From a plasmid, in the sequence record NZ_AP019754.1: DNA of 64,000 nt; one strand, written 5' to 3'. The translations under genes were made by a program, and so were the position numbers. Shown here one piece after another: positions 13,419-52,901 of this stretch (its first letter is position 1; every line of letters begins with the position of its first letter). Under the pieces are notes generated by a model that worked only from the letters and a program-made list of their open reading frames with translations, was not told where the DNA came from and made no database searches.

Positions 13419-14354
13419 TTAACGAAGTAAAGACAGCATAGTCTGAGGTACCTGATTGGCCTGGGCCAGTACCGACGATCCCGCCTGTTGCAGAATCTGC
13501 GCGCGTGACATGTTCGACACTTCCGTCGCATAGTCCGCATCCTGGATACGGCTTCGTGCTGCAGTCAGGTTAGTCACGGTGTTATTCAGGTTACTGATTG
13601 TAGACTCAAAGCGGTTCTGAGATGCACCCAGCAGGCTGCGCTGACTGTCGACGGCCTTGATGGCTTTATCGATATCCGCCAGTGGGGTGCTGCCTGATGC
13701 GGTGCCACCACTACCGCCGGTTACGGCACCCTTCAGCACGTCAAAACCAATAGCCGCAGTGCTACGGGCGGTTCCGTTAACTGTCTGGCCAGTGGTCACG
13801 CTGGTATTCTGCACGGTGCCTGACGAGGCGTTACCGGCCGCAGCAAGATCGAAGCTGTCACTGGAACTCAGGGTGATACCGATAGTCTGGCCATCCTGTG
13901 CACCGACCTGGAAATTGTAAGTGCTGCTACCCGATCCCGTGTTGAGGACTTTCAGACCGTTGAAATCTGTCTGCTTGGTATCGCGGTCAATCTCCTGCAT
14001 ACGCTGGTTAACTTCAGCCTGGATTGAGTCAATATCGGATGCTGAGTTGGAGCTGTTCTGAGCCTGAACAGTCAGGTCACGGACGCGCTGCAGGTTGTTG
14101 TTTATTTCATCCAGTGCACCTTCAGCCGTCTGAGACAATGAAATACCGTCGTTGGCGTTACGTGCGGCAACCGTCAGGCCGTCAATATTTGATGTGAAAC
14201 GGTTAGCAATCGCTTCACCGGCCGCGTCATCTTTGGCGCTGTTGATACGCAGGCCTGATGACAGGCGCTCGATAGCCGTACCCAATGATGACTGTGACTT
14301 ATTCAGGTTGTTTTGAGTAATTAACGACAGAACGTTTGTGTTGATCACTGACAT
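13419..14354 (-). CDS. fliC: Flagellin (short 311-aa form lacking a large hypervariable domain), copy 1
   Basis: Conserved flagellin N-terminus ([42 protein letters not shown]) and C-terminus ([24 protein letters not shown]). Confidence 0.9.
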
Positions 14355-14397
14355 GGTAAATTCCTTCTTATAGAAACGTATTATTTACGCATTATTA

Positions 14398-14424
14398 TTA
14401 TCGAGCTGACCACGCCAAACTTTA
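14398..14424 (-). promoter_or_regulatory. FliA (sigma-28) class-3 promoter for flagellin copy 1
   Basis: On the minus strand the site reads TAAAGTTT, then 11 nt, then CTCGATAA, against the consensus TAAAGTTT-N11-GCCGATAA. The -10 element lies about 44 nt upstream of the ATG. Confidence 0.5.
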
Positions 14425-15037
14425 ATGAAAAGACGCCAGTTAAGATTAATTAGTGAATGGTTTTTTTTACAGGGCGGTGAAGTTGTAAATACAGAAACAA
14501 CTCAGAAAAAAGTTATTATAAGCACACACAAACCTCAATCAGAAGAATAACTTTTTAAAGGTTAAAAACCTTTTGTTACAGCATTGCTCATCAAAAAGCA
14601 CAGATGATTAAATATTTACATTATTAGCCGCATGGTATGATGAGTCATGTTTTTTTGTAACACAGCCTCTCATTAAGGAAATTACATTAACTCTCCCTAA
14701 TTAAAAAGTAAGATATATCATTATCCGGCATTACGATGATAATAATTATTTTTTTACATTTTCCCACAAGAAAGACAGACGTCCGTAATCAAGAAAATTG
14801 CTGGCAGCGTTAAAACCAGTTTGTCATGAAAAACGACGGGAGTTCAGCCTTGGCTCTCATGTCCAGAGACATCGGTTAGCGGACGGGTAATAATGTTGAA
14901 CGGATTTCTCGTGTTCAGCTTAAGCAGAGAAGGGACGAACGGGGAACCGGTCTGGGAAAGGACAACATCAAACGGCGGCGCGCTGATGGCAAGGTGTACC
15001 ATCAGCGCGGAAGATAAAAATTTCGGCTAAACCAGAA

Positions 15038-16432
15038 TTACATTTTTGCGAACTGTGCAGAGAGGTAATCCCCCGTCTGCGTCATTGAAGACACCAGCGT
15101 ACTCAGATTGGTGAACTCCGTTTTATACTGCGCCATGACCGCGGTGATCTGATCATTAACGTTGTTATATTGATCAGACAACTGTTTTAGCGAGGTATTA
15201 ATCCCTGTCGTCGCGTTTGATACCGTGCCGTTGCTGGCTAACATATCATTGAGTCTGTTGGTCACCTGCGTCGCGAACCCCGTAGTTTTGCCATCACCGG
15301 TCAGAAAACTTAAAACATCTGCAGGCTGATTGGTTAAGGCGGCATTCAGCTTGGTGCTGTCTACCGTCAGGTCACCTTTATCGTCCTGGGTAATGCCGAG
15401 TTGTGAGAGTACCTGAATGCTTCCGCTACCCTGAGGATCGGAAAACTGGCTGCGCAGGCTGGTCTGGATATTCATTAACGTATTATCCCCCAGCAGATCG
15501 CCATTATCGGTACTTGGCGCCTGGCCTTCCTGCACGGGTGTATAATTTGTCTGATCTGCAATGGTTTTTTGCAGGGAATTATAGGCATCAACGTACGTCT
15601 GAATCGCCGTCGCCATAGGCGTGGTATCCGTGGCGATAGATAAGGTTTCAGGGGAACCGCTGTTAACTTTATTCAGATTCAGTGTGACCCCTTCAGGGGC
15701 ATCGGTGACGATGTTGCTGCTGCGCGTGATAGCCAAACCGTTTATCTTCAACTGAGCATCCTGAGCAGCAACCTGCTGTGTCATGCCGTTATTACTGCCG
15801 CCACTGCTGTAACTGATATACTGTGACAGCGTCGAGTCATTGGTGCTGACGGTCATCGCATTCGCGGTACCGCTATCACGTGCGGTCAGGGACAAATAGT
15901 AGGTGTTATCGTTTGCCATAATCACGCTGGCATTAACACTACCTTGCTGCTTGTTAATTGCATCACGGATATCTGTCAGGCTGGTCTGATCCTGGTTTAA
16001 GGTCACGGTCAGCGGCGATTTCTGCCCAGACTGGCTGATGGTAATCGTACGTGATGCCATGCTGCTGTCACCGAGATCGGTACTTTCGCTGCTGGCGGAC
16101 TTAGAAAGCAGAGACTGCGCGGCGGCGAGCTGATCGACCTCAACGGAATAGTTTCCGGCTGCGGCACCGCTGGCAAGCGTGGCAGTAAAGGCGGTATTTG
16201 AGCTGGTGACTTTGGTTGTGGCAATGCTCGAGGCATTTTCCAGCGCAGAGGCGGCCGTTTGCAATTTCGACATTGAACTCTGAACCACGCCCCAGGCCGT
16301 CAGCTGCGCATTATAAGACGCCTGCTGATTAGTAATCGGTGTCAGTTGCGCCTGCTCAGCTGACTGTAAATTATCATATAACGTGTTGAGGTCGAGGTTA
16401 GTACCAGCGCCAAGTGTGCTTATGCTTGCCAT
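15038..16432 (-). CDS. fliD: Flagellar filament capping protein (hook-associated protein 2)
   Basis: Canonical MASISTLGAGTNLDL N-terminus and ~464 aa length. The start is taken at the 9th codon of the listed ORF. Confidence 0.9.
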   Translation of the reverse strand: MASISTLGAGTNLDLNTLYDNLQSAEQAQLTPITNQQASYNAQLTAWGVVQSSMSKLQTAASALENASSIATTKVTSSNTAFTATLASGAAAGNYSVEVDQLAAAQSLLSKSASSESTDLGDSSMASRTITISQSGQKSPLTVTLNQDQTSLTDIRDAINKQQGSVNASVIMANDNTYYLSLTARDSGTANAMTVSTNDSTLSQYISYSSGGSNNGMTQQVAAQDAQLKINGLAITRSSNIVTDAPEGVTLNLNKVNSGSPETLSIATDTTPMATAIQTYVDAYNSLQKTIADQTNYTPVQEGQAPSTDNGDLLGDNTLMNIQTSLRSQFSDPQGSGSIQVLSQLGITQDDKGDLTVDSTKLNAALTNQPADVLSFLTGDGKTTGFATQVTNRLNDMLASNGTVSNATTGINTSLKQLSDQYNNVNDQITAVMAQYKTEFTNLSTLVSSMTQTGDYLSAQFAKM

Positions 16433-17077
16433 ATTCTTGTCCTGATGAAGTGACACCAGAATTAAAAATACAATGCATTAATCAGGGGTTTTTCTGATTT
16501 TAAATGTTGTTGCAAATCGGTTTATTGTCATTACTTAACTATCAATTTTCTGTTAAGGAGGTAAAAAATTGTTAACGCAATAACAATTTGAAATTCTTCC
16601 GGGGCGGTTAATTTGGCTTTTGAATAATATACATCGGTGCCGTCTGCAAACACATCAGCGATTAATCAGTCATTTAGCCAGCATCCTCTACCTTAAGCCA
16701 AATTCATTTTTCCTAATCATCATAGCTCAGTTATTCACTCTGCTTATCCTGTTTTAACGACGATCGACGACAAATTGATGCAAAAAACGGAAAAATACTT
16801 AATGCAAATTATGCAGTGTCCTGAAAATATCCGTCGCTAATCAATGCGTTTACAACCGGGCCAGAAAGGTGGATGACTGCTTTTTATTGCGTATTCTTCC
16901 CTGTTTTCGGTAAAAAATATTTTCGCTGCGCGTTAAGTTTACGATTGTTACATCCATTTACGGCAGCGATCGAAACGTTAACAAAGGTGCACGCTGAAGC
17001 ACATACCGCAGAGCGGAGCCCAACCCGATGTCAGGGGCGCAGGGCTACGTGAAGAGGTGCATGTTGATCCGTCGGCC

Positions 17078-17545
17078 TTATGCCTGTCGGGAAAAGCGTG
17101 CATCAAAAAGGAAGGGGATATTTACCGCCTGTCTGACGATCGCACTGAATTCAGGATGCTCCGGATTGAGAAGATAATTCGATTCCACGGGCGAAAGGGC
17201 ACTGGGCACGCGCAGTGCGACCGATCCCCCGCTTTGTATCCAGGCATCACCAAATAAACGCAGCGCTGCAGGCGCTTCCGGTGCGGCCCAGTCGTCAGGC
17301 AGTTGCTTGATATCAATCCATTCAATCAGCCTGTCGGGAACGTCAATGCTCATGAGGGTAAAAAAGTCCAGTACGCTGGCGCTTTGCAGATGGATAAGCG
17401 TCTCCAGCATGGTGAGGGAAGCAGTTTCAGAAGCGTAGACCATCGATACGCCGACGCTGTTCCAGCGTCCGCCGCCTTCACGGGCACCAAAACCGCTCCA
17501 GGCCGACCCCAGATAGCGCGTTTTGGTCATGCGATAGAGCTTCAA
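17078..17545 (-). CDS. RES-domain toxin (type II TA system)
   Basis: 155 aa with the RES-domain layout and conserved Arg/Glu/Ser positions. It overlaps the upstream antitoxin gene by 4 bp. Confidence 0.75.
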   Translation of the reverse strand: MKLYRMTKTRYLGSAWSGFGAREGGGRWNSVGVSMVYASETASLTMLETLIHLQSASVLDFFTLMSIDVPDRLIEWIDIKQLPDDWAAPEAPAALRLFGDAWIQSGGSVALRVPSALSPVESNYLLNPEHPEFSAIVRQAVNIPFLFDARFSRQA

Positions 17546-17997
17546 GAATACACACCGTGTTCAAGCCGGGTAATGAGTTTCAGCACTTCATAAGCCCCGG
17601 TTTCTGACGCGACCAGATCAGCCGGTTTTTTATTGCCTAAGGCGCGCGCAGGCTCATTGAGCCACTGCCGTGCCTTTTCTTTATCGCCCTCAAACAGCTC
17701 AACCGCACGATCCATCACGCGAATAAAACGCACCAGCCGTTCGCTCTGCTCCGCAGTAAAGCGGCTTTTAACGCCGCGGGTGAAGGTTGAGCCCGCAATG
17801 CCGGTCATACGGCGCAGTTCTGCCTGAGAGATTTGCGCCCAGGTGACAATGCGACTGGCTACCGTGCCGTCCAGACCATCATCGATTTGATCCATCAGCA
17901 TCACGCCGTCAGCACTGCTCAGGCCAGCAAATTGCCATAGACGATCCGGTTCTGCAGCGGATACGGGTAAAGTGAACTGTTTCATCATCACCTCCAT
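17542..17997 (-). CDS. Xre/MbcA/ParS-type antitoxin (DUF2384) paired with the RES toxin
   Basis: 151 aa with a C-terminal DUF2384-like helix bundle (ARALGNKKPADLVASETGAYEVLKLITRLEHGV). It lies immediately upstream of the RES gene and is translationally coupled to it. Confidence 0.7.
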   Translation of the reverse strand: MEVMMKQFTLPVSAAEPDRLWQFAGLSSADGVMLMDQIDDGLDGTVASRIVTWAQISQAELRRMTGIAGSTFTRGVKSRFTAEQSERLVRFIRVMDRAVELFEGDKEKARQWLNEPARALGNKKPADLVASETGAYEVLKLITRLEHGVYS

Positions 17998-18371
17998 TTG
18001 GTTGTTCTATTATAGCCAAATGGTGATATCGTTCAATCAGTTATTGATGCACTGTCATCATAAGAAAATAAAGTCGTTTTATCATTTCTCTGGCTGCAGA
18101 CAGAGAAACGAAGTTATACCGCCTTGACGGTCAGCGCCGGGTCTGACAAGAAAACGTAAAAGCGTGACTGAAAACAAAGGAAAAACGGCTACGAACGACG
18201 CATTTGGCTGGACGTCATTACAGGTACACCATAGCCAGTGTGGCTTCTACAGACAGGGCATCATTTTTTAACATGGCAAGATTTTTACCTAAGGCAACTC
18301 TTATCGATGACTGTGTTATATTGCCGCTCTTAAACGCAGGTACTGGGCTCAACCGATAGGGACTATCCGTT

Positions 18372-18596
18372 ATGAAACGACACGATATTAATTCTTCCTC
18401 TCTTTTCCGCAGTGCGGGATTCGACCCGACGTCAGGCGTACTGGAACTTGAATACCGCAATGGCACCTGCCGTCGCTGGCTTGCCGTGCCTGCTCATACC
18501 TATCAGGGATTCTGTGCTGCCCTCGATCAGGACGCTTTTTTCCGCGAAAGTATCGACAACCGTTTCTTCTCCATGTATCAAAAGAGTGATGCCTAA
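18372..18596 (+). CDS. KTSC-domain small protein
   Basis: 74 aa. The pattern LELEYRNGTCRRWLAVPAHTYQGFCAA…FF fits the KTSC fold signature. Confidence 0.4.
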   Translation: MKRHDINSSSLFRSAGFDPTSGVLELEYRNGTCRRWLAVPAHTYQGFCAALDQDAFFRESIDNRFFSMYQKSDA

Positions 18597-19445: not shown

Positions 19446-19519
19446 CGCCGGGAGAGATGCGAGGCCAGTTTAGCCTGTGGTGTAAACGGCCTGGAACAGT
19501 AGCGTTCTGCCCGCCATTT

Positions 19520-20212
19520 TTACGCCCGAATCTGAATCCCTTCGGTGATGATGTGCTGGACACTCTTCACCGTTTGTTCAAAAAACACAGGATCGCTGAG
19601 TGTTTTACCGGTAATCGCCTCAACCTGTACCCCAAAATCTGCGTAATGCTGAGTGGTGGCCCACAGCATAAAAATCAACTGCATCGGATCGATGGGTGCG
19701 ATCAACTCATCTTTAATCCAGCCGCGAATCACGTCCGATTTATCCTCCACCAGCGTTTTCAGGCTGCCGCCAAGCTCCTGTTTCAGCAGCGGTGCGCCCT
19801 GAACCATCTCCAGACAAAATAATCTTGAGGCCTGAGGATGGTCACGGGAGACGCAAAGCTTCAGACGAATATATTCCCGTATTGCTTCCAGAGGATGCTG
19901 ATCGGACTGCAGTGCTTTAAGCGGTGCCAGCCAGATATCCAGCAGCCCTTTGAGCACCGCAATGTATAAATCTTCTTTCGAGGGAAAGTAGTAGAACAGA
20001 TTGGTTTTCGAGACATCCGCGCGTTCAGCAACCTGCTCAAGACGGGTGCCGTGAAAGCCATACAGTGAGAAGAATTCCAGTGCAGCGGCCATGATAGCGC
20101 CACGTTTGGCAGCAACCGCTCGCGAACGTCGCGTCAAAGATTTCGATGGCGTTTTCGCGGCGAGGTTTTCTCCGGCGTCAGAACCCGGGTTTTCGGACAA
20201 TGGCTTCACAAC
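19520..20212 (-). CDS. rutR: TetR-family pyrimidine-utilisation repressor
   Basis: Very close to E. coli RutR throughout (HGTRLEQVAERADVSKTNLFYYFPSKEDLYIAVL…IDPMQLIFMLWATTQHYADF). The start is probably the GTG at 20212. It is divergent from rutA. Confidence 0.85.
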   Translation of the reverse strand, partial: VVKPLSENPGSDAGENLAAKTPSKSLTRRSRAVAAKRGAIMAAALEFFSLYGFHGTRLEQVAERADVSKTNLFYYFPSKEDLYIAVLKGLLDIWLAPLKALQSDQHPLEAIREYIRLKLCVSRDHPQASRLFCLEMVQGAPLLKQELGGSLKTLVEDKSDVIRGWIKDELIAPIDPMQLIFMLWATTQHYADFGVQVEAITGKTLSDPVFFEQTVKSVQHIITEGIQIRA

Positions 20213-20382
20213 ATTTCCCTGATACACACAACAAGGCCAAAAGCATAACAAATAGGCATTAAGGCGACTATCGTCATACGCGTTATTTATAAACACAACT
20301 TGATAACAACCCAGCACAACCAATATTTAACAAAACTGCACCATTTGCGCTCAACTCTGCCTGATTAACGTGCAGCTATTTT

Positions 20383-20413
20383 TGAGTAAATGGTCTGTTT
20401 TAGACCATTTACT
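20383..20413. promoter_or_regulatory. Perfect 13-bp inverted repeat (GAGTAAATGGTCT-N5-AGACCATTTACTC) in the rutR–rutA intergenic region; candidate operator
   Basis: Contains TGGTC/GACCA half-sites like those of the RutR box, although the arrangement and spacing differ from the E. coli consensus. Confidence 0.35.
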
Positions 20414-20469
20414 CCATTATAAATCTACACAATCCCATAACATTCTGTTTTAAATGACTTTTTAAAAAC

Positions 20470-20485
20470 TGGCATCCGCTTTGCA
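20470..20485 (+). promoter_or_regulatory. Sigma-54 (RpoN) promoter upstream of rutA
   Basis: TGGCAT-N5-TTGCA with GG–N10–GC spacing, about 120 nt upstream of the rutA ATG. E. coli rutA is NtrC/sigma-54 dependent. Confidence 0.55.
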
Positions 20486-20607
20486 AATGTCCTTACGTCA
20501 GGAGATTTCAGCACGGTGCAACAGGAACCCGCAGGACGCACTTAAGCCGCGCAGAGATTTTCGCAAGCCCTTGTTGTCGTCCCAATTATTTTCAATCGAG
20601 GTGAGCT

Positions 20608-21699
20608 ATGAAAATCGGTGTCTTTATTCCTATCGGTAACAACGGTTGGCTAATTTCAGAAACTGCGCCGCAGTACAAGCCAACCTTCGAACTGAATAAA
20701 ACCATTGTGCAGAAAGCAGAGCACTACCATTTCGACTTCGCGCTCTCGATGATCAAACTGCGCGGCTTCGGCGGTAAAACGGAATTCTGGGAACACAACA
20801 TGGAGTCATTCACGTTGATGGCCGGTCTGGCCGCCGTAACGTCCCGCATTCAGCTCTACGCCACCGCCGCCACCCTGGTCATGCCACCGGCAATCGTTGC
20901 GCGCATGGCTGCCACAATTGACTCCATCTCCAACGGCCGGTTCGGCGTGAACGTGGTAACCGGCTGGCAGAAACCGGAATACGAACAAATGGGCATGTGG
21001 CCTGGCGATGACTATTTTACCCGCCGCTACGATTACCTGACCGAATATGTCAGCGTACTGCGCGATCTGTGGGGAACAGGGCACTGCACGCTTGACGGCG
21101 AATTTTTCAAAATGGATGACTGTCGCGTCAGTCCACGCCCGCAAAGCGAAATGAAAGTCATCTGCGCCGGACAAAGTGACGCTGGCATGGCGTTTTCCGC
21201 CAAACACGCCGATTTTAACTTCTGCTTTGGCAAAGGCGTCAACACGCCAACCGCTTTTGCACCTACCGCAGCCCGCATGAAAACAGCGGCTGACGCTGAA
21301 AACCGTGACGTGTCCTCTTACGTGTTGTTCATGGTGATTGCCGATGAAACCGACGAGGCCGCGCGCGCCAAATGGGAGCTGTACAAAGCCGGTGCTGATG
21401 CGGAGGCCCTGTCATGGCTCACCGACCAGAGCAGTAAAGATACCCGCTCCGGCAGCGATACCAATGTTCGCCAGATGGCCGATCCCACGTCAGCGGTCAA
21501 CATCAACATGGGGACGCTGGTCGGCTCCTGGGCCAGCGTCGCCAGAATGCTTGATGAGATCGATACGGTTCCCGGTGCGGGCGGCGTATTGCTGACCTTT
21601 GACGATTTCGTCGAAGGCATTGAAAACTTTGGTCGTTACATTCAGCCGTTAATGAAAACGCGCCAGCACATCGGCATTCAGCAGAAAGAGGTCGCATGA
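20608..21699 (+). CDS. rutA: Pyrimidine monooxygenase (FMN-dependent, luciferase-like)
   Basis: 363 aa, first gene of the rut operon. Confidence 0.9.
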
Positions 21700-22448
21700 T
21701 GAACATTGTTGAAAATCAAACCGTGGTTCGCCGCGCGCCCGATAATGCTGGCGAGGAAAGGGTGCTGGCCGCGCGTCCTGAAGCCATTGGTTTCACCCCG
21801 CAGCAGACGGCGCTTATTGTGGTGGATATGCAAAACGCTTACGCCTCGCAGGGCGGTTATCTTGATCTTGCAGGCTTTGACGTGTCTGCCACCGCGCCGG
21901 TCATTGCCAATATCAAAGTGGCGATTGCCGCTGCTCGCGCGGCAGGCATTAAGGTGATTTTTTTCCAGAACGGCTGGGACAATCAGTATGTCGAAGCCGG
22001 GGGGACGGGCTCGCCCAACTTCCATAAATCCAATGCGCTGAAAACAATGCGCAAACGTCCCGAGCTGATGGGCAAACTGCTGGCGAAAGGGGACTGGGAT
22101 TACGATCTGGTCGATGAACTGCAACCCCAGCCGGGCGATATTGTGCTGCCAAAACCACGCTACAGCGGCTTCTTTAATACCCAGTTGGATAGCCTGCTGC
22201 GCAGCTACGGCATTCATCATCTGGTTTTCACCGGCATCGCCACCAACGTGTGCGTCGAATCCACCCTGCGTGACGGCTTCTTTTTGGAATATTTTGGCGT
22301 CGTACTGGAAGACGCGACACACCAGGCGGGCCCCGAGTTTGCGCAAAAAGCCGCGATTTATAACATCGAAACGTTTTTTGGTTGGGTCTCCAGCGTAAGC
22401 CACTTCTGCGACGCGGTGGGTTACAAAACTGAACAAAACGCGGCCTGA
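21696..22448 (+). CDS. rutB: Ureidoacrylate / peroxyureidoacrylate amidohydrolase (isochorismatase family)
   Basis: 250 aa, overlaps the rutA stop, isochorismatase-fold motifs present. Confidence 0.9.
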
Positions 22449-22473
22449 CCGCTTGTGAAAAGGACAATGAACG

Positions 22474-22860
22474 ATGCCTAAACGCGCCATTATTCCAGCC
22501 GGCAGCGGTGTTCCGCTGGCGCCATTTGTTCCCGGTACGCTTGCCGATGGGGTCCTGTACGTTTCCGGTACTTTGCCTTTTGATAAAGACAACAACGTCG
22601 TACATGTGGGCGATGCGGCAGCACAAACCCGCCATGTACTGGAGATCATCAAAAGCGTGATCGAAACCGCAGGCGGCAGCATGGATGACGTCACCATGAA
22701 CTCGATTTTTATCACCGACTGGGCGAATTACGGGGCAGTGAATCAGGTCTATGCGGAGTATTTCCCGGGTGAAAAACCGGCAAGGTTCTGCATTCAGTGT
22801 GGGCTGGTGAAACCGGATGCGTTGATCGAAATCGCATCGATTGCCCACCTTGGCAAATAA
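22474..22860 (+). CDS. rutC: RidA-family aminoacrylate peracid reductase
   Basis: 128 aa with a YjgF/RidA fold, in rut operon position. Confidence 0.85.
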
Positions 22861-22895
22861 TCTGTTCGGTGATGTATTTCATCTGAGGAAACAGT

Positions 22896-23723
22896 ATGTA
22901 TTACAAGGTATTGGGTCAGCAAAACGCTGATGCAGAAACCGTCGTGCTCTCCTCGGGTCTCGGCGGCTCCGGGGGATTCTGGCAGCCTCAGCTGGCGATG
23001 CTCTCGGCGCATTTTCGGGTGGTGGTCTATGACCAGTACGGCACCGGCGCCAGTCAGGGTAGCGTACCCGCCGGTTACCGGATGGAGGATATGGCCGATG
23101 AGCTGGCAGGCTTACTTAACGCGCTGAATATCAGCCGCTGTCATCTGGTCGGTCACGCACTGGGCGGCATTATGGGTCTGCATCTTGCCCTGCGTTATCC
23201 CGCGCTGCTGCAAAGTCTGGTGGTAATTAATGGCTGGACAGTCCTTAACAGCCAGACGCGCCGCTGCTTCGACGTCCGTCGGAACCTGCTGCTTAACAGC
23301 GGCGTAGATGCCTACGTGCAGGCGCAGCCGCTGTTTCTGTACCCGGGTGACTGGCTTTCTGAACATGAAGCTTTCCTGCAGGAAGAGCGCCAGCATCAGG
23401 TGGCGAACTTTCAGGGGATGGAAAACCTGCTGCATCGCCTGCAGGCGCTGATGGACTCCGATCTGACCACCTCGCTCAAAGGCGTCATCGCGCCGACCCT
23501 GGCGTTGAGCGCTAAAGATGATTTGCTGGTGCCCTGGTCCTGTTCAGCCGATCTCGCCTCGCGCCTTCCCCATGGCGAGCACCTGCAAATGGGCTACGGC
23601 GGACATGCCATGAGCGTAACGGACCCCGATACGTTTAACCCGATTTTACTGGACTGGCTGCAGCGGCAGGCTTCGCATCCATCCGGAACACCGTCTGATT
23701 TCATACCTGTGGAGATGCCATGA
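22896..23723 (+). CDS. rutD: Alpha/beta-hydrolase aminoacrylate hydrolase
   Basis: 275 aa with a HALGG nucleophile-elbow variant. Confidence 0.85.
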
Positions 23724-24310
23724 CCGAAGCATTAACCGCCAGCGCGCTGGCCACGTTGTTCACCGAAGCCCGCACCCATAACGGCTGGCTGAATAAACCG
23801 GTAACAGGCGAACAACTGAAAACGATTTACGAACTGGCGCGCATGGGGCCGACCTCGGCGAACTGCAGCCCGGTGCGCATCGTATTTATTCAGAGCCAGG
23901 AAGCGAAACAACAACTGGCGCCGGCACTTTCCAGTGGCAATCTGAAGAAAACGATGACCGCTCCGGTGACGGCGATTATTGCCTGGGATCCGGAATTCTA
24001 TGAGCTGCTGCCTGAACTGTTTCCGTCCGGCGATGCCCGTTCATGGTTCACCTCCAGCCCACAGCTGGCACAGGATACCGCGTTCCGCAACAGCAGTTTA
24101 CAGGCTGCGTATCTGATTATGGCCTGTCGCGCGATCGGCCTGGATACCGGACCGATGTCCGGTTTCGACAATGCCAAAGTTGATGAAACCTTTCTGGCGC
24201 AGGAAGGCTGGAAATCGAATTTTCTGATTAACATTGGTTACGGCGACAGCAGCAAAGTCTATCCGCGCGCACCGCGCCTGGACTTTGACCGCGCCTGTCG
24301 CGTGCTGTAA
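23720..24310 (+). CDS. rutE: Nitroreductase-like malonic semialdehyde reductase
   Basis: 196 aa, overlaps the rutD stop. Confidence 0.85.
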
Positions 24311-24322
24311 GCATCACCGATC

Positions 24323-24895
24323 ATGACTGAGGACACGAGCATGCAATCAACCCTGAACGCCACACTGCCCGCGACCGACATGCCCCTTGCTGAAAAAGAG
24401 GCTGCCGTTGAGAAACAGGAATACCGCAATGCCATGGCGCGCCTCGGCTCTGCCGTCAACATCATCACCACTGACGGCCCCGGCGGTCGGGCAGGTTTCA
24501 CCGCCTCTGCTGTGTGCAGCGTCACCGATACGCCACCGACACTGCTGGTGTGCCTGAACCGTTCTGCGTCGGTACATCCGGCGTTTATACAAAATCAGGT
24601 GCTGTGCGTAAACACGCTGGCCGACAGCCACGAATCACTTTCTAATTTATTCGGCGGAAAAACGCCGATGGAACAACGCTTCGACGCCGCCGAATGGACA
24701 GATCTCGCCACCGGCTCCCCGATCCTCACTAACGCGCTGGTGTCATTTGACTGCAAGGTCACGCAGATCACCCGGGTCGGTACCCACGATATTATGTTTT
24801 GTGAAGTTGTTGCACTCCGTTGCAACGATGACTGCCACGGACTGGCGTATTTCGACCGACGCTATCATCCGCTGATGCGTCAGATAGCCTGTTAA
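24323..24895 (+). CDS. rutF: Flavin reductase (the true start may be an internal Met)
   Basis: [37 protein letters not shown] matches E. coli RutF. There is a ~20-aa N-terminal extension relative to E. coli. Confidence 0.85.
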
Positions 24896-24928
24896 CTCAA
24901 TCCGCATTCAACTTAGTAAGGATCGTAC

Positions 24929-26275
24929 ATGGCACATTCCTGGTTTCCGCAATGGCGTAAAAGAGAAGGTAATCTGGATGGCGCGGTGATCGCGCCGGAT
25001 GAACGGCTACCGTTTGGCGCGACGGTGATCATGGGACTGCAACACACGGTGGCGATGTTTGGTGCCACGGTACTCATGCCATTGCTGATGGGGTTTGACG
25101 CCAATATGGCGATCCTGATGTCGGGCATCGGCACGCTGCTGTTCTTCCTGGTCGTAGGCGGGCGCGTGCCGAGTTATCTCGGTTCCAGTGCTGCATTTGT
25201 CGGGTTAGTGATTGCCGTGACCGGCTACAGCGGCCACGGCACGAACCCGAATATCGGCGTCGCGCTGGGCGGGATTATCGCCTGTGGCCTGATTTACATG
25301 CTGATCGGTTTTGTCGTCATGGCGGTCGGCACGCGCTGGATTGAGCGCCTGATGCCGCCGGTGGTGACCGGCGCGGTAGTGATGGCGATTGGACTCAATC
25401 TGGCGCCGATTGCCATAAACAGCGTATCCGCTTCATCGTTTGACAGCTGGATGGCGGTGATGACGGTGCTGTGTATCGGATCGGTGGCGGTGTTTACACG
25501 CGGTCTGGTACAGCGACTGTTACTGTTGCTGGGTCTGGTGGCGGCGTACCTGATTTATATGGCGATCACCAACGGCCTCGGGCTGGGCACGCCGGTGAAT
25601 TTCAGCGCCGTGGCGCAGGCGCCCTGGTTCGGCGTGCCCACCGTCACTACGCCGGTATTCAGCACGCACGCTATGCTGATGATTGCGCCGGTGGCGGTGA
25701 TCCTGGTTGCGGAAAACCTTGGCCATATTAAAGCCGTGGCGGGGATGACCGGTAAAAATCTCGATCCCTACATGGGCCGCGCCTTTATCGGGGATGGCCT
25801 GGCGACCTTGCTTTCGGCTTCGGCGGGCGGCACCGGCGTGACAACCTATGCCGAAAATATCGGCGTCATGGCCGTCACTAAAATTTACTCCACGCTGATT
25901 TTTGTCGCCGCCGCAATCATGGCCATTGTGTTGGGTTTTTCGCCTAAATTTGGTGCCTTGATCCACACCATTCCTGGCCCGGTGCTCGGTGGAGCATCCA
26001 TCGTGGTATTTGGCTTGATTGCCGTAGCTGGCGCCCGCATTTGGGTACAAAACCACGTTGATTTGGGCCTGAATGGCAATCTCATCATGGTGGCAGTTAC
26101 GCTGGTACTGGGCGCGGGCAACTTCACCCTGAGCCTGGGCGGCTTCAGCATGGGCGGCATCGGCACCGCGACCTTTGGGGCGATTTTACTCAATGCTTTC
26201 CTGAGCCGCAGCAAAATGGCAAAGACGCCGGCTGAGATTGAGGCAGCCACAGAAGCGGCGCTGAGAGAGCCGTAA
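24929..26275 (+). CDS. rutG: NCS2-family pyrimidine permease
   Basis: 448 aa, polytopic membrane protein, last gene of the operon. Confidence 0.85.
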   Translation: MAHSWFPQWRKREGNLDGAVIAPDERLPFGATVIMGLQHTVAMFGATVLMPLLMGFDANMAILMSGIGTLLFFLVVGGRVPSYLGSSAAFVGLVIAVTGYSGHGTNPNIGVALGGIIACGLIYMLIGFVVMAVGTRWIERLMPPVVTGAVVMAIGLNLAPIAINSVSASSFDSWMAVMTVLCIGSVAVFTRGLVQRLLLLLGLVAAYLIYMAITNGLGLGTPVNFSAVAQAPWFGVPTVTTPVFSTHAMLMIAPVAVILVAENLGHIKAVAGMTGKNLDPYMGRAFIGDGLATLLSASAGGTGVTTYAENIGVMAVTKIYSTLIFVAAAIMAIVLGFSPKFGALIHTIPGPVLGGASIVVFGLIAVAGARIWVQNHVDLGLNGNLIMVAVTLVLGAGNFTLSLGGFSMGGIGTATFGAILLNAFLSRSKMAKTPAEIEAATEAALREP

Positions 26276-37329: not shown

Positions 37330-39387
37330 TTACTTCTGAATCCAGCAAGGGCCCGGCCTGCCAAAGAGGTATCCCTGAAGTAACGGACACTCATTCGTCT
37401 TTAGCCACTCCGCCTGGGCAGGCGTTTCCACGCCCTCTGCGGTCACTTCAACCTGGAGTTGACGGCAGAGTGAAAGAACGGAGCTGACGATGGCTGCCGC
37501 TCCGGAGTCCAGGTGCAGATCGTTGATAAACGACCTGTCTATTTTTATCCTGCTGAACAGTCCGGAACTGAGGTGGTTCAGTGAAGAAAAGCCCGTACCA
37601 AAATCATCCAGTACGATATGAATTCCGGTATCCCTGAACCTGCGAATCATTTCGTAACTGCCTTCGGGGTTGTCGAACAGCGCCGACTCGGTGATTTCGA
37701 GCTCCAGCCGGTTTGGGTGCAGCCCACTCTCAATAAGAACCGTTTTCACCCTGTTGGCCAGCTGTGGATCACGAAACTGACGGGGCGAGATATTAACTGC
37801 CACGCGTTCGTGCCCTGACCACTCCGCCATATCGTTGCAGGCTCGCTCAAGCGCGAATGCGCCAATATCATGAATAAGCCCGGTTTTTTCAGCGAGCGGG
37901 ATGAACACGTCAGGCGAAACATTTCCCCTTACAGGATGATTCCAGCGCAGCAGGGCTTCATAGGAAACCACTTCCTCACTGATGCTGCAGACGACGGGCT
38001 GATAAAAAATCTGCAGCTCACCGTTCTCGAGCGCGCCACGCAGGTCATTTTCCAGGCTAAAGCGCTCTGCCGCCGAACTGGCTAGCTCATCGGTAAAAAT
38101 TACCCAGCCTTTGCGCCCGGCTGACTTGGCAGCGTAGAGGGCGATATCGGCTGCCGATAACATGCTTTCGGCATCTCGCGCATAGCCCGGAAAGAGGCAA
38201 ACCCCGAAGCTGCAACCCGAGGTGACTTTCCGCCCTTTCAGCATGAAGGGCTCCTTCAGGACCATCGTCAGGCGCGATGCTGTTTCGCTTGCGTCTTCTG
38301 CCGAGCTAATGCCGGGCAAAACGGCAACGAACTCGTCACCGCCCGTGCGGGCCAGAATGTCGCCCGGGCGCAGGACTGACAGCAGCCGTGCTGAAACCTC
38401 AATGAGCAAGGTATCGCCCGCCGCGTGACCCAGAACGTCGTTGACGCTTTTAAACCGGTCGATGTCAGACACCATGACCGCAAAGGGTTCGTCACCGTCC
38501 AGAAGCGTTTCAAGCTCAGGCATCAGGCCACGGCGGTTGAGAAGCCCTGTCAGCGGATCATGAAGGGCCAGATGGTTCGCTCTGACCGCAGCCTGATACT
38601 CCGCCGTGACGTCCAGTATGGTATACAGGAGATAGTCATCTCCGCCGCCCGAATTCAGCCTTTCGGCGGAAATCCGTAATGAAAATTCCGGCTCATTATC
38701 GCCCGAAGAAACCGTTTCACTAAAGCCCTGGTCGGGAAGGAGGTCAAATGCCTGCCTGAACACAGCCGCGAGATTGTCTGGCAGGCCCGCAGGCAGGGCG
38801 GTTCGGGTATTCCCACTGCGTACCCGTTCTTGCAGACAGGACAAATTCATGGCCGTCGGGTTCGCGCGTATGATGTCCCCCGATGCAACGTCACACAGGA
38901 TGAGCGCGCAAGGCGTGTGGCTGAATACGGCGTCGAGCACCTTATTTGTGTCTGATAACTCGGTTTCCCTTTTCAGGATAACTTTTTGAGCGATGCGGAG
39001 CGCCGCCCTTTCCTGATAGCCTTGTGAAACGTCACGCACGATTTTGATAAAGGCCGCATTATCTTCATCGGACGGATTGAGAAATTCTATTTCAACTGAT
39101 GCCCGAAACGCGCTGCCGTTTTTGCGCAGGCGCCAGCCCTCTCCTGTGAACTTGCCGCGCTCACGGGCCTCCCTCAGGTTGGCCTCAGGGATATTCCTGG
39201 CCTGCTCATCTTCATCATAAAAAACCGAAATATGCTGCCCTCGGATATCGCGGCTATCCCATCCCTTGATCTCACGGCATCCAAGATTCCAGCTCATCAC
39301 TTCTCCGGTGGAAGACAGCAGATATATCGCACAAAGAGACGTTCTGGCCACGGCGGCCCCCAGTTGGTCATTGGTTACGGATTTCAT
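37330..39387 (-). CDS. PAS–GGDEF–EAL c-di-GMP signalling protein
   Basis: 685 aa with an N-terminal PAS domain, a GGDEF site (RTGGDEFVAV) and an EAL domain (YEALLRW, ELEITES, DDFGTG). Confidence 0.85.
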   Translation of the reverse strand: MKSVTNDQLGAAVARTSLCAIYLLSSTGEVMSWNLGCREIKGWDSRDIRGQHISVFYDEDEQARNIPEANLREARERGKFTGEGWRLRKNGSAFRASVEIEFLNPSDEDNAAFIKIVRDVSQGYQERAALRIAQKVILKRETELSDTNKVLDAVFSHTPCALILCDVASGDIIRANPTAMNLSCLQERVRSGNTRTALPAGLPDNLAAVFRQAFDLLPDQGFSETVSSGDNEPEFSLRISAERLNSGGGDDYLLYTILDVTAEYQAAVRANHLALHDPLTGLLNRRGLMPELETLLDGDEPFAVMVSDIDRFKSVNDVLGHAAGDTLLIEVSARLLSVLRPGDILARTGGDEFVAVLPGISSAEDASETASRLTMVLKEPFMLKGRKVTSGCSFGVCLFPGYARDAESMLSAADIALYAAKSAGRKGWVIFTDELASSAAERFSLENDLRGALENGELQIFYQPVVCSISEEVVSYEALLRWNHPVRGNVSPDVFIPLAEKTGLIHDIGAFALERACNDMAEWSGHERVAVNISPRQFRDPQLANRVKTVLIESGLHPNRLELEITESALFDNPEGSYEMIRRFRDTGIHIVLDDFGTGFSSLNHLSSGLFSRIKIDRSFINDLHLDSGAAAIVSSVLSLCRQLQVEVTAEGVETPAQAEWLKTNECPLLQGYLFGRPGPCWIQK

Positions 39388-48197: not shown

Positions 48198-48198
48198 G

Positions 48199-48945
48199 AT
48201 GATTGAAATTCGTGATGTCCATAAGCGGTTCGGTGCTGTCGAAGTGCTGAAAGGGGTAAGTTTCCGCGTCGATGAGGGCGAAGTGGTATGCCTGGTGGGG
48301 CCCTCCGGTTCCGGAAAATCGACTGTGCTGCGCTGTATTAACGGGCTTGAAACCTATGAAAGCGGCACCATTCGCGTGCTCGACCAGCATGTTGACAGTA
48401 AAAGTAAAAATATCAATTCGCTTCGGCGCCAGATAGGAATGGTTTTCCAACGATTTAACCTCTTTCCGCACCGTAGCGTGCTGGAAAACGTGATGGAAGG
48501 TCCGATTTACGTTAACGGTGAATCGCGCAGTAAAGCCGAAAAGATAGCCAAAGAGTTGCTGGAAAGAGTAGGACTGGCCGACAAAGTCTCCGCCTGGCCG
48601 TCGCAGCTTTCCGGTGGTCAGCAGCAGCGCGTGGCCATCGCCCGAACGCTGGCATTGCAGCCGAAAGCCATTCTTTTCGACGAACCGACATCAGCACTGG
48701 ATCCGGAGTTAGTCGGCGAGGTTCTGCAGGTCATGCGCAACCTGGCACAGCAGGGAATGACCATGATCGTGGTCACGCATGAGATGCAGTTTGCAAGAGA
48801 GGTCGCCGATCGCGTCTGTTTCCTGCACAGCGGACAAATTGTGGAGCAGGGCCACGCTGAACAGGTGCTGTTGCGCCCTCAGGAGGCGCGCACGCAAGAT
48901 TTCCTACGGCGGGTTCTGGGAACATCTGCGTCCGGAACAGGATGA
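48199..48945 (+). CDS. Polar amino acid ABC transporter ATP-binding protein
   Basis: The start is taken at [12 protein letters not shown] (GGAG upstream). Walker A (GPSGSGKST), [13 protein letters not shown] and Walker B are all present. Confidence 0.85.
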
Positions 48946-49482
48946 GACGGGAGCAATTCTGTCACTCCTGAGACTTTTTAGCGCCTCAAGAAAGGGCATG
49001 ACGCGCAAACAGCGGATTGATGACGTTACCGTGCAGATACACCCGCCTTGCTGATGGCCACAATCAGCGCGGTTCCGCCGAATCCCCATCCCCAGAATGT
49101 TTTCGCAGACTTAATTTTCCTGTCACAAGCGCCTTTAGCATTGTCAGTTCCCTGTCTGAATCCGGTTATATTCGGTCAACGACAGGCTCAAACAGAAACT
49201 TTCCTGACATTCTCTTTGAAGACACGCTACCAGACCGAAAGGATGGCCGCGTGTGCGTGAGGCCCGTCAGGTACGGGGAAAGCGTGTCCGGAGAAGGATA
49301 ACCGTGCAGCTTCCGGATGATGCATTTACCCGGCATCAGTCGTCGGACAAAAAAAGGCCCGTCAGCATGAACGCGACGGGCCAGCACGGAGGCGACGAAA
49401 ATATTTCTGACAACAGACACATCACAACGGAGTAACGTTAACCAATATTCTGCGAAAGACGTATTTCAGCTGCAGGGAGAGT

Positions 49483-49812
49483 TTATCGGGGCTTGCTGCC
49501 ATTCTCTCTGGCCTGGTGCTCCAGGCATCTTATAAAATTCTCTATTATCTGCACAGAGTAAGTTATGGCCAGCAACTCTGCCGTGAGCTGGACATCCATA
49601 CGCATCAGCGTCTCCATGACGCCGGGCTTGCTGAGGACCGGCTTCATATTTTTTACCCGGTCCATCAGATGTGTCCAGTTATTGATAAAGGTGTCCGGGT
49701 CAGCATAGGTTCCATCCCTCAGTTGCGTGTAAATCGCGTCAACATCCGCTTTCATTAGCCTGACGGCCTTAATCAGTCTTTCCTCGTAAGTGGGCTGGTT
49801 TTCATCAGACAC
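49483..49812 (-). CDS. Small hypothetical protein (109 aa) overlapping the 3' end of the chemoreceptor gene by 8 nt
   Basis: Open frame with plausible composition and no recognisable family. It is positioned as if translationally coupled to the upstream MCP. Confidence 0.35.
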   Translation of the reverse strand: MSDENQPTYEERLIKAVRLMKADVDAIYTQLRDGTYADPDTFINNWTHLMDRVKNMKPVLSKPGVMETLMRMDVQLTAELLAITYSVQIIENFIRCLEHQARENGSKPR

Positions 49813-51349
49813 GGAACGTTTCCACCATACATCTCAGCGCATGCGCCTGCTCAGACAGTGACTGCGAAGCCGAGGATGACTCCTCGACCAGCGCCGCGTT
49901 GTTCTGCGTCACGCCGTCCATCTGACTCACGGCAACACTCACCTGCGAAATGCCCTGCATCTGCTCTGCGGACGCCAGGGAGATGTTATCCATCGCCTCA
50001 GCGAGCTCACCGACCAGGCCGACCACCTTCTGGATACTCTGTCCGGTCGATGAAGCTACGCCGACGCCGCTTTCAATCTGATCGACGGCCTGCTCAATCA
50101 GCGTCTTGATGTCCTTTGCGGCCGTCGCGCTGCGCTGTGCCAGCGTACGCACCTCTCCGGCTACCACGGCAAATCCGCGTCCCTCTTCACCTGCGCGGGC
50201 CGCTTCCACCGCGGCGTTCAGTGCCAGAATGTTGGTCTGGAACGCGATGCCCTCAATCACTGACGTGATGTCGCGGACTTTTGCGGCACTCGCTGAGATG
50301 TCCTGCATGGTCACTGACATGCGCTGTACGTCCGACCCGCCTGCGTGAGCCAGCTGCGCGGTCCCACGGGCGGACTCTGCTGTCTGCTGCGCACTGGCCG
50401 CGTTGCTCTTCACCGTGGCGGTCAGCTGCTCCATGCTGGCGGCCGTTTCCTGCAGCGCAGCCGCCTGCTGTTCGGTGCGGGATGACAGTTCAGTATTACC
50501 CTGCGCGATTTCGTCCGAGGCGAGGGCCACAGAGGCAGAGGTCTCTTTAATCTGCGACACCAGGCCGCGCAGGTTGGCCTGCATGCTGTCAAGCGACGCC
50601 AGCAGGCTGGTCGTGTCGTTGCGGCGAAGCACGACCGGCGATGTGAGGTCGCCGGCCGCAATGGTGGCGGCCAGTGCCTGCGCCTGGGCAGGCTCACCGC
50701 CCAGCTGGCGCATTAGTACACGGACAACCAATACACAGGCCCCGACACTGATGAAAATGGATGCACCGGCCAGAAGGATCAGGATGAGAGATGAGCGTGA
50801 AGTTGAAGTGCTGTTCTCCTTCACCTCAGCAAAGCTTGTCTTCTGCTGTATCCCTGTCACAACCTGCAAATCGCTGAGCATTTTATCCTGCACGGGCTGG
50901 ACCTCTTTTGTCAGACACTCAAAGAAGTCTTTATCGCGATTGGCCAGGCCAAGCTGACTGGCCTTTGCAAAAATGGCAAAAAAAGAGGCCTCTGTATCGG
51001 TCAGTCTCTTGAAAGCGTTCCGTCCTGCCGGAAGAGAATCGATCTTCAGCAAGTCACCAAGAGCCTGGCGGTTAGCGCTATATTGCGCCTGAGTTTTCTG
51101 CATGCGCTCTGCTACGGGTTTCATTGCCACAGGATCGCTCAGCAGCCCAAGCGTTCTGACGTCTATGGACATCTCTCTCAGTTCACCGAGCATGTCCTGC
51201 GCAATTTGGTACTTTTTCATTTTGATGTTTACGATCCTGTCCATTCCTTCCCGGGCTTTATAGAGCGCATTCAGCGCAGTACCGGTGCAGATGATGAACA
51301 GGAAGATAAGCAGGCCGAAACCTGCAGCAAGGCGAGTCGATATTTTCAT
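49805..51349 (-). CDS. Methyl-accepting chemotaxis protein (4HB-type periplasmic sensor, HAMP, signalling domain; no C-terminal pentapeptide)
   Basis: 514 aa with an N-terminal TM (LAAGFGLLIFLFIICTG), a second TM followed by HAMP, and the conserved core [40 protein letters not shown]. Confidence 0.85.
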   Translation of the reverse strand: MKISTRLAAGFGLLIFLFIICTGTALNALYKAREGMDRIVNIKMKKYQIAQDMLGELREMSIDVRTLGLLSDPVAMKPVAERMQKTQAQYSANRQALGDLLKIDSLPAGRNAFKRLTDTEASFFAIFAKASQLGLANRDKDFFECLTKEVQPVQDKMLSDLQVVTGIQQKTSFAEVKENSTSTSRSSLILILLAGASIFISVGACVLVVRVLMRQLGGEPAQAQALAATIAAGDLTSPVVLRRNDTTSLLASLDSMQANLRGLVSQIKETSASVALASDEIAQGNTELSSRTEQQAAALQETAASMEQLTATVKSNAASAQQTAESARGTAQLAHAGGSDVQRMSVTMQDISASAAKVRDITSVIEGIAFQTNILALNAAVEAARAGEEGRGFAVVAGEVRTLAQRSATAAKDIKTLIEQAVDQIESGVGVASSTGQSIQKVVGLVGELAEAMDNISLASAEQMQGISQVSVAVSQMDGVTQNNAALVEESSSASQSLSEQAHALRCMVETFRV

Positions 51350-51900
51350 GTCTTTTCTCGTTATATAGGGCGTTCTGGTGTTGGTTAATCTTTGCCGGAC
51401 GTCAAGAGCAGTCCGACCGGATTAATCCTAGATGGGTTTTTGCATTTAGTGCTTATTTCGCCCCAGTATTACTGAGAATAATCTGAAAAAAATTGTTTCT
51501 GCGTACTTCAATTGCCTGCGCAACGGCTTTGCCTGACGTCGGAATCTGTCATCTCAGTCACGTCCAGCCCCACTGATGGGGTTGCCTTCAGAAAACCCTT
51601 ATGATGAGAAATCCGTCACGCACAATAAGTTGATTGAGAGACTAAACATCCTTTTCCAACAAACATCTCTCCCCGATCGAAAAGCCGCGATAATCCGTGC
51701 CATTACTCTACTTACCTGAGTCCGTGACCAGACAATCCCGGCTTGACGTGAAATGAATGCCCCTTTTTAGGAGGCGCAGGCCATCTGGGCTGATTGACAG
51801 GTGGTCAGTAAAAAGAGGCCTGTTGCATGGTCAACATGACACATCGTCAGTATGTCAAATTGATTCCAGTGATAAATGATCGACCTGCGTCACAATTAAA

Positions 51901-51927
51901 GAAAGCAACTATCGTGACGATAACGTT
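51901..51927 (+). promoter_or_regulatory. FliA (sigma-28) promoter for flagellin copy 2
   Basis: TAAAGAAA-N11-GACGATAA, about 38 nt upstream of the ATG at 51966. Confidence 0.5.
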
Positions 51928-51965
51928 AGGGCGTGATTTGCACGCTTTGACTACAGGGAGTCAAC

Positions 51966-52901
51966 ATGGCCGTTATCAACACAAATACGCTGTCACTGGT
52001 TACGCAGAATAACCTGACAAAGTCACAGTCTTCACTAGGCACGGCGATTGAGCGCCTGTCTTCCGGTCTGCGCATCAACAGTGCAAAAGATGATGCAGCC
52101 GGTGAGGCCATCGCTAACCGTTTCACCTCCAACATCAACGGGATGACCGTTGCCGCCCGCAATGCCAACGACGGTATTTCGCTGTCGCAGACCGCCGAGG
52201 GCGCGCTGACTGAAATTAACAATAATCTGCAGCGAGTTCGTGACCTGACCGTTCAGGCGCAGAACAGCTCTAACTCAGCCTCGGATGTCGACTCGATTCA
52301 GGCTGAAGTTAACCAGCGCATGCAGGAAATCGACCGCGTTACGAAACAGACTGATTTCAACGGTATCAAAGTGCTGAACACCGGCTCCGGCAGCACCACC
52401 TACAATTTCCAGGTGGGCGCAAAAGACGGCGAAACTATTGGTATTGCGCTGAGCTCAAGCGACGGTTTTGACCTGGCTGCAGCGGGCAACGCTTCTACAG
52501 GCACCACTCAGAATACCAGTTCTACGACAGGCCAGACGGTCAACGGCAATGCCCGCACCACGTCAGCCATCGGCTTCGACGTGCTGAAAGGGGCTGTCAC
52601 CGGCGGTTCAGGCGGCACAGCGTCAGGTACCACGCCACTGGCCGACATTGATAAAGCCATCAAAGCGGTCGATAACCAGCGCAGCCTGCTGGGTGCCTCG
52701 CAAAACCGTTTCGAGTCCACCATCAGCAACCTGAACAATACCGTGACAAACCTGACCGCGGCCCGCAGCCGTATTCAGGATGCGGATTACGCGACGGAAG
52801 TGTCGAACATGTCCCGCGCGCAGATCCTGCAGCAGGCGGGCTCTTCTGTACTGGCCCAGGCCAACCAGGTGCCACAGACCATGCTGTCACTGCTCCGCTA
52901 A
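51966..52901 (+). CDS. fliC: Flagellin (311 aa), copy 2; paralogue of the gene at 13419..14354
   Basis: Same length and conserved termini as copy 1. About 88% amino-acid identity overall, with differences concentrated centrally. Double stop TAATAA. Confidence 0.9.

Follow-up and report, generated by a model that had tools for sequence, protein, structure and literature searches.

The question raised by the DNA examined here, a stretch of 64,000 nucleotides from the plasmid record NZ_AP019754.1 (hereafter the window), is why one plasmid carries two flagellin genes for nearly the same protein and what these genes may contribute to the host cell. The window is part of the large plasmid LPP-1 (Large Pantoea Plasmid, a megaplasmid) of Pantoea ananatis. 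Plasmid pPANA10 of strain LMG 5342 is collinear with window positions 2289–54978 at 99.2–99.3% identity, for the right end of the window the identity to LPP-1 plasmids of P. ananatis reaches 99.8% (CP014208), and the collinearity with pPANA10 and further P. ananatis plasmids is at 99% or more. Collinearity with sequenced LPP-1 plasmids and replicon cluster 1232 assign the window to Group II LPP-1, the P. ananatis type. According to De Maayer et al. (2012; BMC Genomics 13:625, PMC3505739), Group II LPP-1 bears two fliC genes apart from the chromosomal fli locus, a further fliC copy is located within that locus, and phase variation was suggested. The core of the finding, two fliC genes on LPP-1, has thus been published since 2012 and is already known. 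What is added here is a quantitative analysis of selection, the promoter footprints, the three-copy chromosomal array together with an orphan flagellin, and the distinction between a core module of copy 1 and fliD and a dispensable cassette with copy 2. We interpret both genes as accessory plasmid-borne class-3 flagellins of the P. ananatis family that would feed the chromosomal flag-1 filament, and assign to this interpretation a probability of roughly 60%.

Flagellin copy 1, the LPP-1 core fliC (13419–14354, minus strand), and flagellin copy 2 (51966–52901, plus strand) are open reading frames of 311 codons each, inverted relative to each other and separated by 37,611 bp. Both products contain Flagellin_N (PF00669; residues 4–138, E = 7.5e-40 and 2.2e-41) and Flagellin_C (PF00700; residues 226–310, E about 2e-31), the latter spanning the FliS-binding and polymerisation segment, and the solved structures best matching both copies are flagellins. 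This agrees with an earlier note on the sequence, which had described two 311-residue flagellins, inverted and 37.6 kb apart. No third flagellin gene was found within the 64-kb window. The flg/flh/fli complement of the window consists of the two fliC genes and one fliD gene only, the remaining genes being metabolic, transport, or regulatory. Thus, the window does not hold the full set of structural and export genes of a supernumerary flagellar system (flag-2 to flag-5).

The two genes share 80.0% of their nucleotides and encode proteins with 92.6% amino acid identity, so the impression of the earlier note that the DNA is far more diverged than the protein was correct. Synonymous changes only were counted in 141 codons and non-synonymous ones in 23; the previous estimate of about 35 differing residues was too high. 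Nei–Gojobori calculations gave pS 0.66, dS of about 1.6 (near saturation), dN 0.045, and omega 0.03, with an omega of 0.036 for the central, surface-exposed third. The last 74 residues are identical between the copies, and over the C-terminal 71 codons the protein is identical at pS 0.60. This value rules out gene conversion as the cause of the identical C-termini, which are therefore kept by selection. The longest identical DNA run between the copies is 23 bp, and the gene flanks are unrelated. An old split of the copies under strong purifying selection is well supported by these distances and by syntenic counterparts in Pantoea stewartii, as the earlier proposal of an old duplication held by selection would have it. 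In the order of divergence estimated from synonymous distances, the copy 1 lineage separated first and the copy 2 type next, and the chromosomal copies are mutually closest.

The 23 replacements are distributed as 10 in residues 1–140, 13 in residues 141–240, and none in residues 241–311. The supposed identity of both terminal segments holds for the C-terminal one, the N-terminal segments differing at positions 2, 8, 12, and 18. A difference within residues 15–40 was indeed present but amounted to a single replacement, N18T. The flg22-equivalent stretch (residues 29–50) was identical in copy 1, copy 2, and the chromosomal FliC-A when aligned, which does not support the idea of flg22-related variation in plant immunity. 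Nor was a marked antigenic difference supported: 13 of 100 positions of the central domain differ, mainly by conservative swaps of Ser/Thr type.

These replacements bear on an alternative in which the copies are expressed one at a time for antigenic or immune evasion (phase variation), altering the surface presented to plants, animals, and flagellotropic phages. We regard it as unlikely. Several observations are consistent with it: flagellin genes are present in multiple copies on different replicons, Ser or Thr is involved in 15 of the 23 differences, 13 of the 23 fall in the exposed central domain, and a flagellin glycosylation island adjoins the chromosomal fliC, so that Ser/Thr swaps could shift glycosylation sites. 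Furthermore, two fliC copies were associated with pathogenicity on an Allium hybrid in a genome-wide association study (PMC9933511). However, the flg22 region is the same in both proteins, and the proteins as a whole are nearly so. Inversion between the copies was rejected: in none of the nine plasmids with both copies does their relative orientation differ (the spacing being about 37.3 kb in eight of them and about 52 kb in CP022429), and the longest shared run is as short as stated above. A subtle change of the surface through the Ser/Thr differences is possible.

Further evidence on the mode of expression was provided by the promoter regions. The sigma-28 core pattern TAAAG-N15-17-CGATAA occurs at exactly two sites in the 64 kb, with 0.05 expected, and both sites lie before the ATG codons of the flagellin genes. 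The putative sigma-28 (FliA) promoter of copy 1, TAAAGTTT-N11-CTCGATAA (14398–14424, minus strand), matches the consensus at 14 of 16 positions and ends 43 nt before the ATG. That of copy 2, TAAAGAAA-N11-GACGATAA (51897–51923, plus strand), matches at 12 of 16 and ends 42 nt before the ATG. The copy 1 boxes and their distance are kept in P. stewartii DC283 and in the Lstri plasmid of P. ananatis, with a different spacer sequence, and the copy 2 promoter is kept in both pCN102 of P. stewartii and pOC5aB of P. ananatis. For the most part, the spacers upstream of the genes cannot be aligned between the two species; conserved are the final stretches of ~110 nt (copy 1) and ~75 nt (copy 2). These promoter-proximal stretches, in which 38–39 of 50 positions are kept, contain the sigma-28 boxes and the 5' untranslated region. 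In addition, an AT-rich patch about 170–270 nt upstream of the copy 1 ATG is conserved with P. stewartii. Since the boxes are conserved while the rest of each spacer has diverged, the footprints support functional promoters, and the earlier statement that each copy has a sigma-28 promoter of its own was borne out for the motif, which remains a predicted promoter. Boxes before the plasmid fliD and both chemoreceptor genes of the copy 2 region scored at background level only (9–11/16).

Each flagellin gene is followed by a hairpin. A perfect 12-bp stem with an 8-nt loop (13377–13408) is located between the converging copy 1 and FMN-reductase genes and is likely a bidirectional terminator; a 13-bp hairpin directly 3' of the copy 2 stop codon (52909–52942, plus strand) is likely a terminator as well. 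The Rfam scan gave no match near either flagellin gene. No co-transcribed fljA-like repressor gene was present, each gene being followed by its hairpin and then by the converging FMN-reductase gene (copy 1) or a chemoreceptor gene (copy 2). No inverted repeats flank either promoter as an invertible segment would require; nearby are only short imperfect repeats and the terminator hairpins. A recombinase gene was found neither in the annotation of about positions 2289–64000 nor in the two open reading frames tested upstream of 2289, where small open reading frames were not examined. The recombinase, invertible segment, and repressor of Hin/FljA-type switching were therefore not found, and all five flag-1-type flagellin genes, plasmid and chromosomal, share the same sigma-28 promoter type, which predicts co-expression and argues against phase variation.

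The window also contains two genes related to cyclic-di-GMP, encoding an EAL-domain protein (37330–39387, minus strand) and a Cache-GGDEF diguanylate cyclase (172–1437, plus strand). At 58 nt upstream of the EAL gene is a -10 box that fits sigma-28 perfectly (GCCGATAA), combined with a poor -35 box. The EAL protein is 84.5% identical to that of the EAL gene directly 3' of the copy 2-type block of P. stewartii pCN102.

Copy 1 is situated downstream of a second, plasmid-borne gene of the filament cap, fliD (15038–16432, minus strand; 464 aa, Pfam FliD_N and FliD_C), on the same strand, as had been noted. The 683-bp spacer between them (14355–15037) is non-coding, with no open reading frame longer than 52 aa. 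No fliS or fliT was detected by tblastn in the window including this spacer (nothing better than E = 2). The fliD-then-fliC order without fliS/fliT, which the earlier note had considered atypical, is therefore real; it is explained by the plasmid location, the canonical flagellar genes being placed elsewhere, in the chromosome. Immediately upstream of the plasmid fliD is a pair of genes for a RES-domain toxin and an Xre/MbcA/ParS-type antitoxin (17078–17997, minus strand).

The distribution of the flagellin genes was recorded, by annotation, for the 15 P. ananatis-type LPP-1 plasmids in PLSDB. Copy 1, accompanied by the second fliD, was intact in all 15. The LPP-1 plasmid pDSJ10 of P. stewartii DC283, which belongs to the same replicon cluster, has the same block fliD-flagellin-FMN reductase-DUF333-GNAT-MBL, with fliD broken by IS630 and the flagellin gene intact. 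Copy 1 and this orthologue are 98.1% identical in amino acids and 83.6% in nucleotides (pS 0.61, pN 0.016). Omega for copy 1 is 0.013 between the species and 0.035 within P. ananatis lineages. Between P. ananatis and P. stewartii, pS ranged from 0.43 to 0.77 for the orthologues that neighbour copy 1 on LPP-1 and for fliD, fliS, and fliT of the chromosome. Copy 1 falls within the range of the neighbouring orthologues and thus represents ordinary orthologous divergence, with the lowest pN of all genes compared (seven neighbouring gene pairs). The plasmid FliD shares 76% of its residues with its chromosomal counterparts in P. ananatis and P. stewartii and 91% with the FliD of P. stewartii LPP-1; within P. 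ananatis, its gene has pN 0.003 and pS 0.098. Copy 1 and the second fliD are thus an old module that is universally retained on LPP-1.

This linkage might mean that the plasmid fliD and copy 1 constitute a filament-plus-cap module of their own, used under other conditions than the chromosomal pair, for example with a different segment or cap pairing. The order of fliD and flagellin is conserved on LPP-1 in both species, the plasmid FliD is under purifying selection within P. ananatis despite its distance from the chromosomal protein, no other flag-1-type flagellin is as diverged as copy 1, and a related flagellin-hypothetical-fliD-flgD-flgK cassette is found on the conjugative plasmid pOC5aB. 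We nevertheless consider such a module very unlikely: the D0/D1 termini of copy 1 are almost those of the chromosomal FliC, so that no special cap seems to be needed, the plasmid fliD lacks a recognisable flagellar promoter, and in DC283 its disruption by IS630 has left the flagellin intact. The cassette on pOC5aB, a conjugative MOBF plasmid of P. ananatis OC5a (locus L084, 6070–12550), is arranged on one strand, and its products flagellin, FliD, FlgD, and FlgK are exported flagellar components.

The chromosomal relatives of the plasmid genes were reached in P. ananatis via the chromosomal FliD homologue, 76% identical to the plasmid FliD. The flag-1 locus contains three tandem fliC genes (312, 310, and 301 aa; FliC-A, FliC-B, and FliC-C) divergent from fliD-fliS-fliT-amyA. 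Next to them is a glycosylation island with genes for an aminotransferase, a 1183-aa glycosyltransferase, and a formyltransferase. The P. stewartii chromosomal locus has one fliC adjoining fliDST and two giant glycosyltransferase genes. Copy 2, the nearer of the two plasmid copies to chromosomal FliC, is 94.5, 94.8, and 89.7% identical in amino acids to FliC-A, FliC-B, and FliC-C of P. ananatis and 96.4% identical to P. stewartii FliC; for copy 1, the identities to the same four proteins are 86–92%. All seven flag-1-type flagellins compared end in the same 74 residues. Each chromosomal fliC has its own sigma-28 promoter (14–15/16), ending 68–69 nt before the ATG. Tryptic peptides that discriminate the products are available: 13 residues each for copies 1 and 2, FTSNINGLTVAAR for chromosomal A, and FSSNINGLTVAAR for chromosomal B and C.

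An orphan flagellin of 311 aa, about 73% identical to the plasmid copies, was found in the chromosome of P. ananatis LMG 2665 (locus L007, 8001–8936) and in P. allii (locus L006, 8001–8930), between dkgA and ftsP-plsC-parC and well away from all flagellar genes. No sigma-28 box occurs within 160 nt of it, and its codon bias is weak (effective number of codons, ENC, 54.8), yet it is conserved between P. ananatis and P. allii (pN 0.015, pS 0.19). The number of flagellin genes in P. ananatis can therefore be as high as six: three in tandem in the chromosome, the orphan in at least one strain, and two on LPP-1. The two paralogues of the earlier note are better described as two members of this family. 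Tandem short flagellin genes adjoining fliD were also seen in Enterobacter adelaidei (two; locus L004, 6881–8903) and Candidatus Pantoea haifensis (four; locus L005, 5569–10184), their products being 74–88% identical to those of the plasmid genes, so that multiplication of flagellin genes is a recurrent event in this lineage of flagellins. An origin of the plasmid genes as flag-3 remnants was considered, since the E. adelaidei tandem flagellins seemed closer than the first P. ananatis chromosomal match. It was rejected, as this first match (locus L007) was the orphan flagellin at its non-flagellar site and the true flag-1 FliC of P. ananatis and of P. stewartii is 90–96% identical to the plasmid copies.

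If the plasmid genes are accessory flagellins of the flag-1 filament, each of them would form a monocistronic unit of class 3, with FliA (sigma-28) from the chromosome as its sigma factor. The products would be chaperoned by chromosomal FliS, would be exported through the flagellar type III apparatus encoded in the chromosome, and would join the chromosomal FliC proteins in the flag-1 filament. Use of chromosomal FliS, export, and co-polymerisation are most likely because the C-terminal 74 residues are exactly those of the chromosomal proteins and the N-terminal D0/D1 helices are nearly the same. The outcome could be mixed filaments or just a larger supply of subunits. Codon usage is consistent with a history of high expression for copy 2, whose ENC of 34.0 is close to that of the chromosomal fliC genes (34.7–36.5); ordinary plasmid genes have values of 48–52.

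Copy 2 occurs in a different setting from copy 1. As described before, it is placed between two intact chemoreceptor genes, both encoding methyl-accepting chemotaxis proteins (MCP). The first (49805–51349, minus strand; 514 aa, Pfam MCPsignal and 4HB_MCP_1) is divergent from copy 2, and the second (53183–54847, plus strand; 554 aa, Pfam MCPsignal, 4HB_MCP_1, HAMP, and TarH) is downstream of it. A 109-aa protein without a Pfam match is encoded 3' of the first MCP gene, overlapping its stop codon (49483–49812, minus strand). It had no tblastn match in the compared loci, among which pCN102 was not included; in P. stewartii pCN102 a gene for a hypothetical protein of ~100 aa is similar to it in placement. 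Plasmid pCN102, a different replicon, carries a block MCP-hypothetical-MCP divergent from flagellin-MCP-EAL, which matches the copy 2 block. The hypothetical-MCP-fliC2-MCP segment of the window forms a replaceable cassette of 5.7 kb (49308–55018), the exact interval that is replaced in strain FDAARGOS_680, and at its right border the LMG 5342 sequence departs from that of the window. The positions just past the second MCP gene (54978–55019) are a hotspot of structural variation, with the LMG 5342 divergence and the FDAARGOS_680 breakpoint; beyond them, LMG 5342 has an island with a tyrosine recombinase gene. A 177-aa open reading frame at 2130–2666 (minus strand), near position 2289 where the collinearity with pPANA10 starts, contains the MCP signalling domain in part only and is probably a truncated third chemoreceptor gene.

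The fate of this cassette is among several observations that weigh against the two copies being contributors to the flag-1 filament. Copy 2 is present in nine of the 15 LPP-1 plasmids and absent from six, it is frameshifted in LMG 5342, in LMG 2665 an in-frame deletion of 159 bp has removed the C-terminal helices, and in the LPP-1 plasmid of P. ananatis FDAARGOS_680 the whole cassette is exchanged for a 2.5-kb segment with a GNAT gene. Since copy 2 has been repeatedly inactivated or lost, its contribution cannot be essential, and it belongs to a mobile, dispensable chemoreceptor-flagellin cassette that is being lost in some lineages. The weak codon bias of copy 1 (ENC 46.4) suggests low expression, and the plasmid fliD has no recognisable sigma-28 promoter. 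Finally, deletion of 'fliCI' alone rendered P. stewartii DC283 aflagellate, as Herrera et al. (2008) is cited in PMC5723134. On the terms of that citation, the LPP-1 flagellin of DC283 cannot build a filament alone under those conditions; its partner fliD is the one broken by the IS element.

A further alternative is that the plasmid genes are functionally redundant passengers adding nothing beyond the chromosomal fliC, with copy 2 decaying and the long-term constraint reflecting past function. The absences and lesions of copy 2, the existence of three chromosomal fliC genes, and the aflagellate state of DC283 lacking fliCI despite an intact LPP-1 flagellin, as far as the citation in PMC5723134 goes, all fit. 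Yet copy 1 is intact on every plasmid under an extremely low omega, eight of the nine copy 2 genes are annotated as intact, both promoters are conserved across species, and proteins of neutral relics would not stay 98% identical when their DNA is down to 84%. Redundancy alone would account for the decay of copy 2, but it does not fit copy 1, which is retained everywhere and extremely constrained, and we consider it improbable as an explanation of the pair. The reading of both genes as accessory flagellins of the flag-1 filament is the one we retain.

Other genes of the window are related to metabolism. Between the two flagellin genes is a near-complete operon of pyrimidine utilisation (19520–26275), with rutR and rutB–G annotated and an unannotated open reading frame of rutA size at 20608–21699. 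The Rfam scan detected a Guanidine-II (mini-ykkC) riboswitch at 60621–60670 (minus strand; 40.4 bits against a gathering score of 32), 20 nt upstream of a urea carboxylase gene (56996–60601; 1201 aa). This arrangement suggests that the plasmid carries a carboxylase operon responsive to guanidine.

For P. ananatis, a plant pathogen and epiphyte, these data mean that the flagellin family is larger than usually stated. The presence or absence of copy 2 is a plausible source of the 'fliC' signals in the pathogenicity association study (PMC9933511), and it is also relevant to the design of fliC knock-outs and to the reading of flg22-type immune assays. A broader and very doubtful extension is that Pantoea replicons circulate small filament-surface cassettes that use the flagellar machinery of the host and whose Ser/Thr substitutions re-pattern O-glycosylation of the filament. 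The examples would be a flagellin alone, a flagellin with a cap, and a flagellin with a cap, FlgD, and FlgK on a conjugative plasmid. If this were true, recognition by flagellotropic phages or hosts could be altered with an unchanged protein fold, and the cassettes would be parallel to the recently described phage-borne flagellin replacement systems, without a dedicated repressor. The practical value of the finding is modest, and no new kind of system is revealed: the genes appear to be ordinary accessory flagellins of an already known type.

The closest known case is the Group II LPP-1 account of De Maayer et al. (2012), which concerns these very genes on this type of plasmid. It was given without an analysis of divergence, promoters, or strain distribution, and it mentions one chromosomal fliC, whereas three tandem copies are present in a P. 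ananatis chromosome that we examined. The phase variation proposed there would need a machinery of which nothing was found in the present analysis. The fliC/fljBA-hin system of Salmonella enterica and the plasmid fljB-like flagellins of Salmonella and E. coli likewise place a second flagellin away from the main locus, sometimes on a plasmid, and use the export and assembly machinery of the host flagellum, as the LPP-1 pair probably does. The Salmonella system, however, has a Hin-invertible promoter, the FljA repressor, and very different central domains; neither of the former was found for the LPP-1 pair, whose central domains are nearly the same. The flag-3a as well as the flag-3b systems (De Maayer et al., 2020, PMC7526173) of some Pantoea, Erwinia, and Enterobacter include extra fliC and fliD genes and an MCP gene adjoining fliC, as here. 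However, these are full second flagellar systems, comprising about 45 genes, and their proteins share about 52% identity with flag-1. The window contains two fliC and one fliD only, and its flagellins are 86–96% identical to the flag-1 FliC of the species itself. In bacteria with multi-flagellin filaments, such as Stenotrophomonas maltophilia with three tandem fliC genes (PMC8998449), Bdellovibrio with six (PMC2791853), and Pseudomonas with duplicated genes (PMC9927476), similar flagellins are co-expressed in one filament, and by analogy the Pantoea copies could likewise contribute to a single filament. These bacteria have their copies in the chromosome, mostly in clusters, whereas in Pantoea two are carried by a megaplasmid, one of them in an indel-prone cassette.

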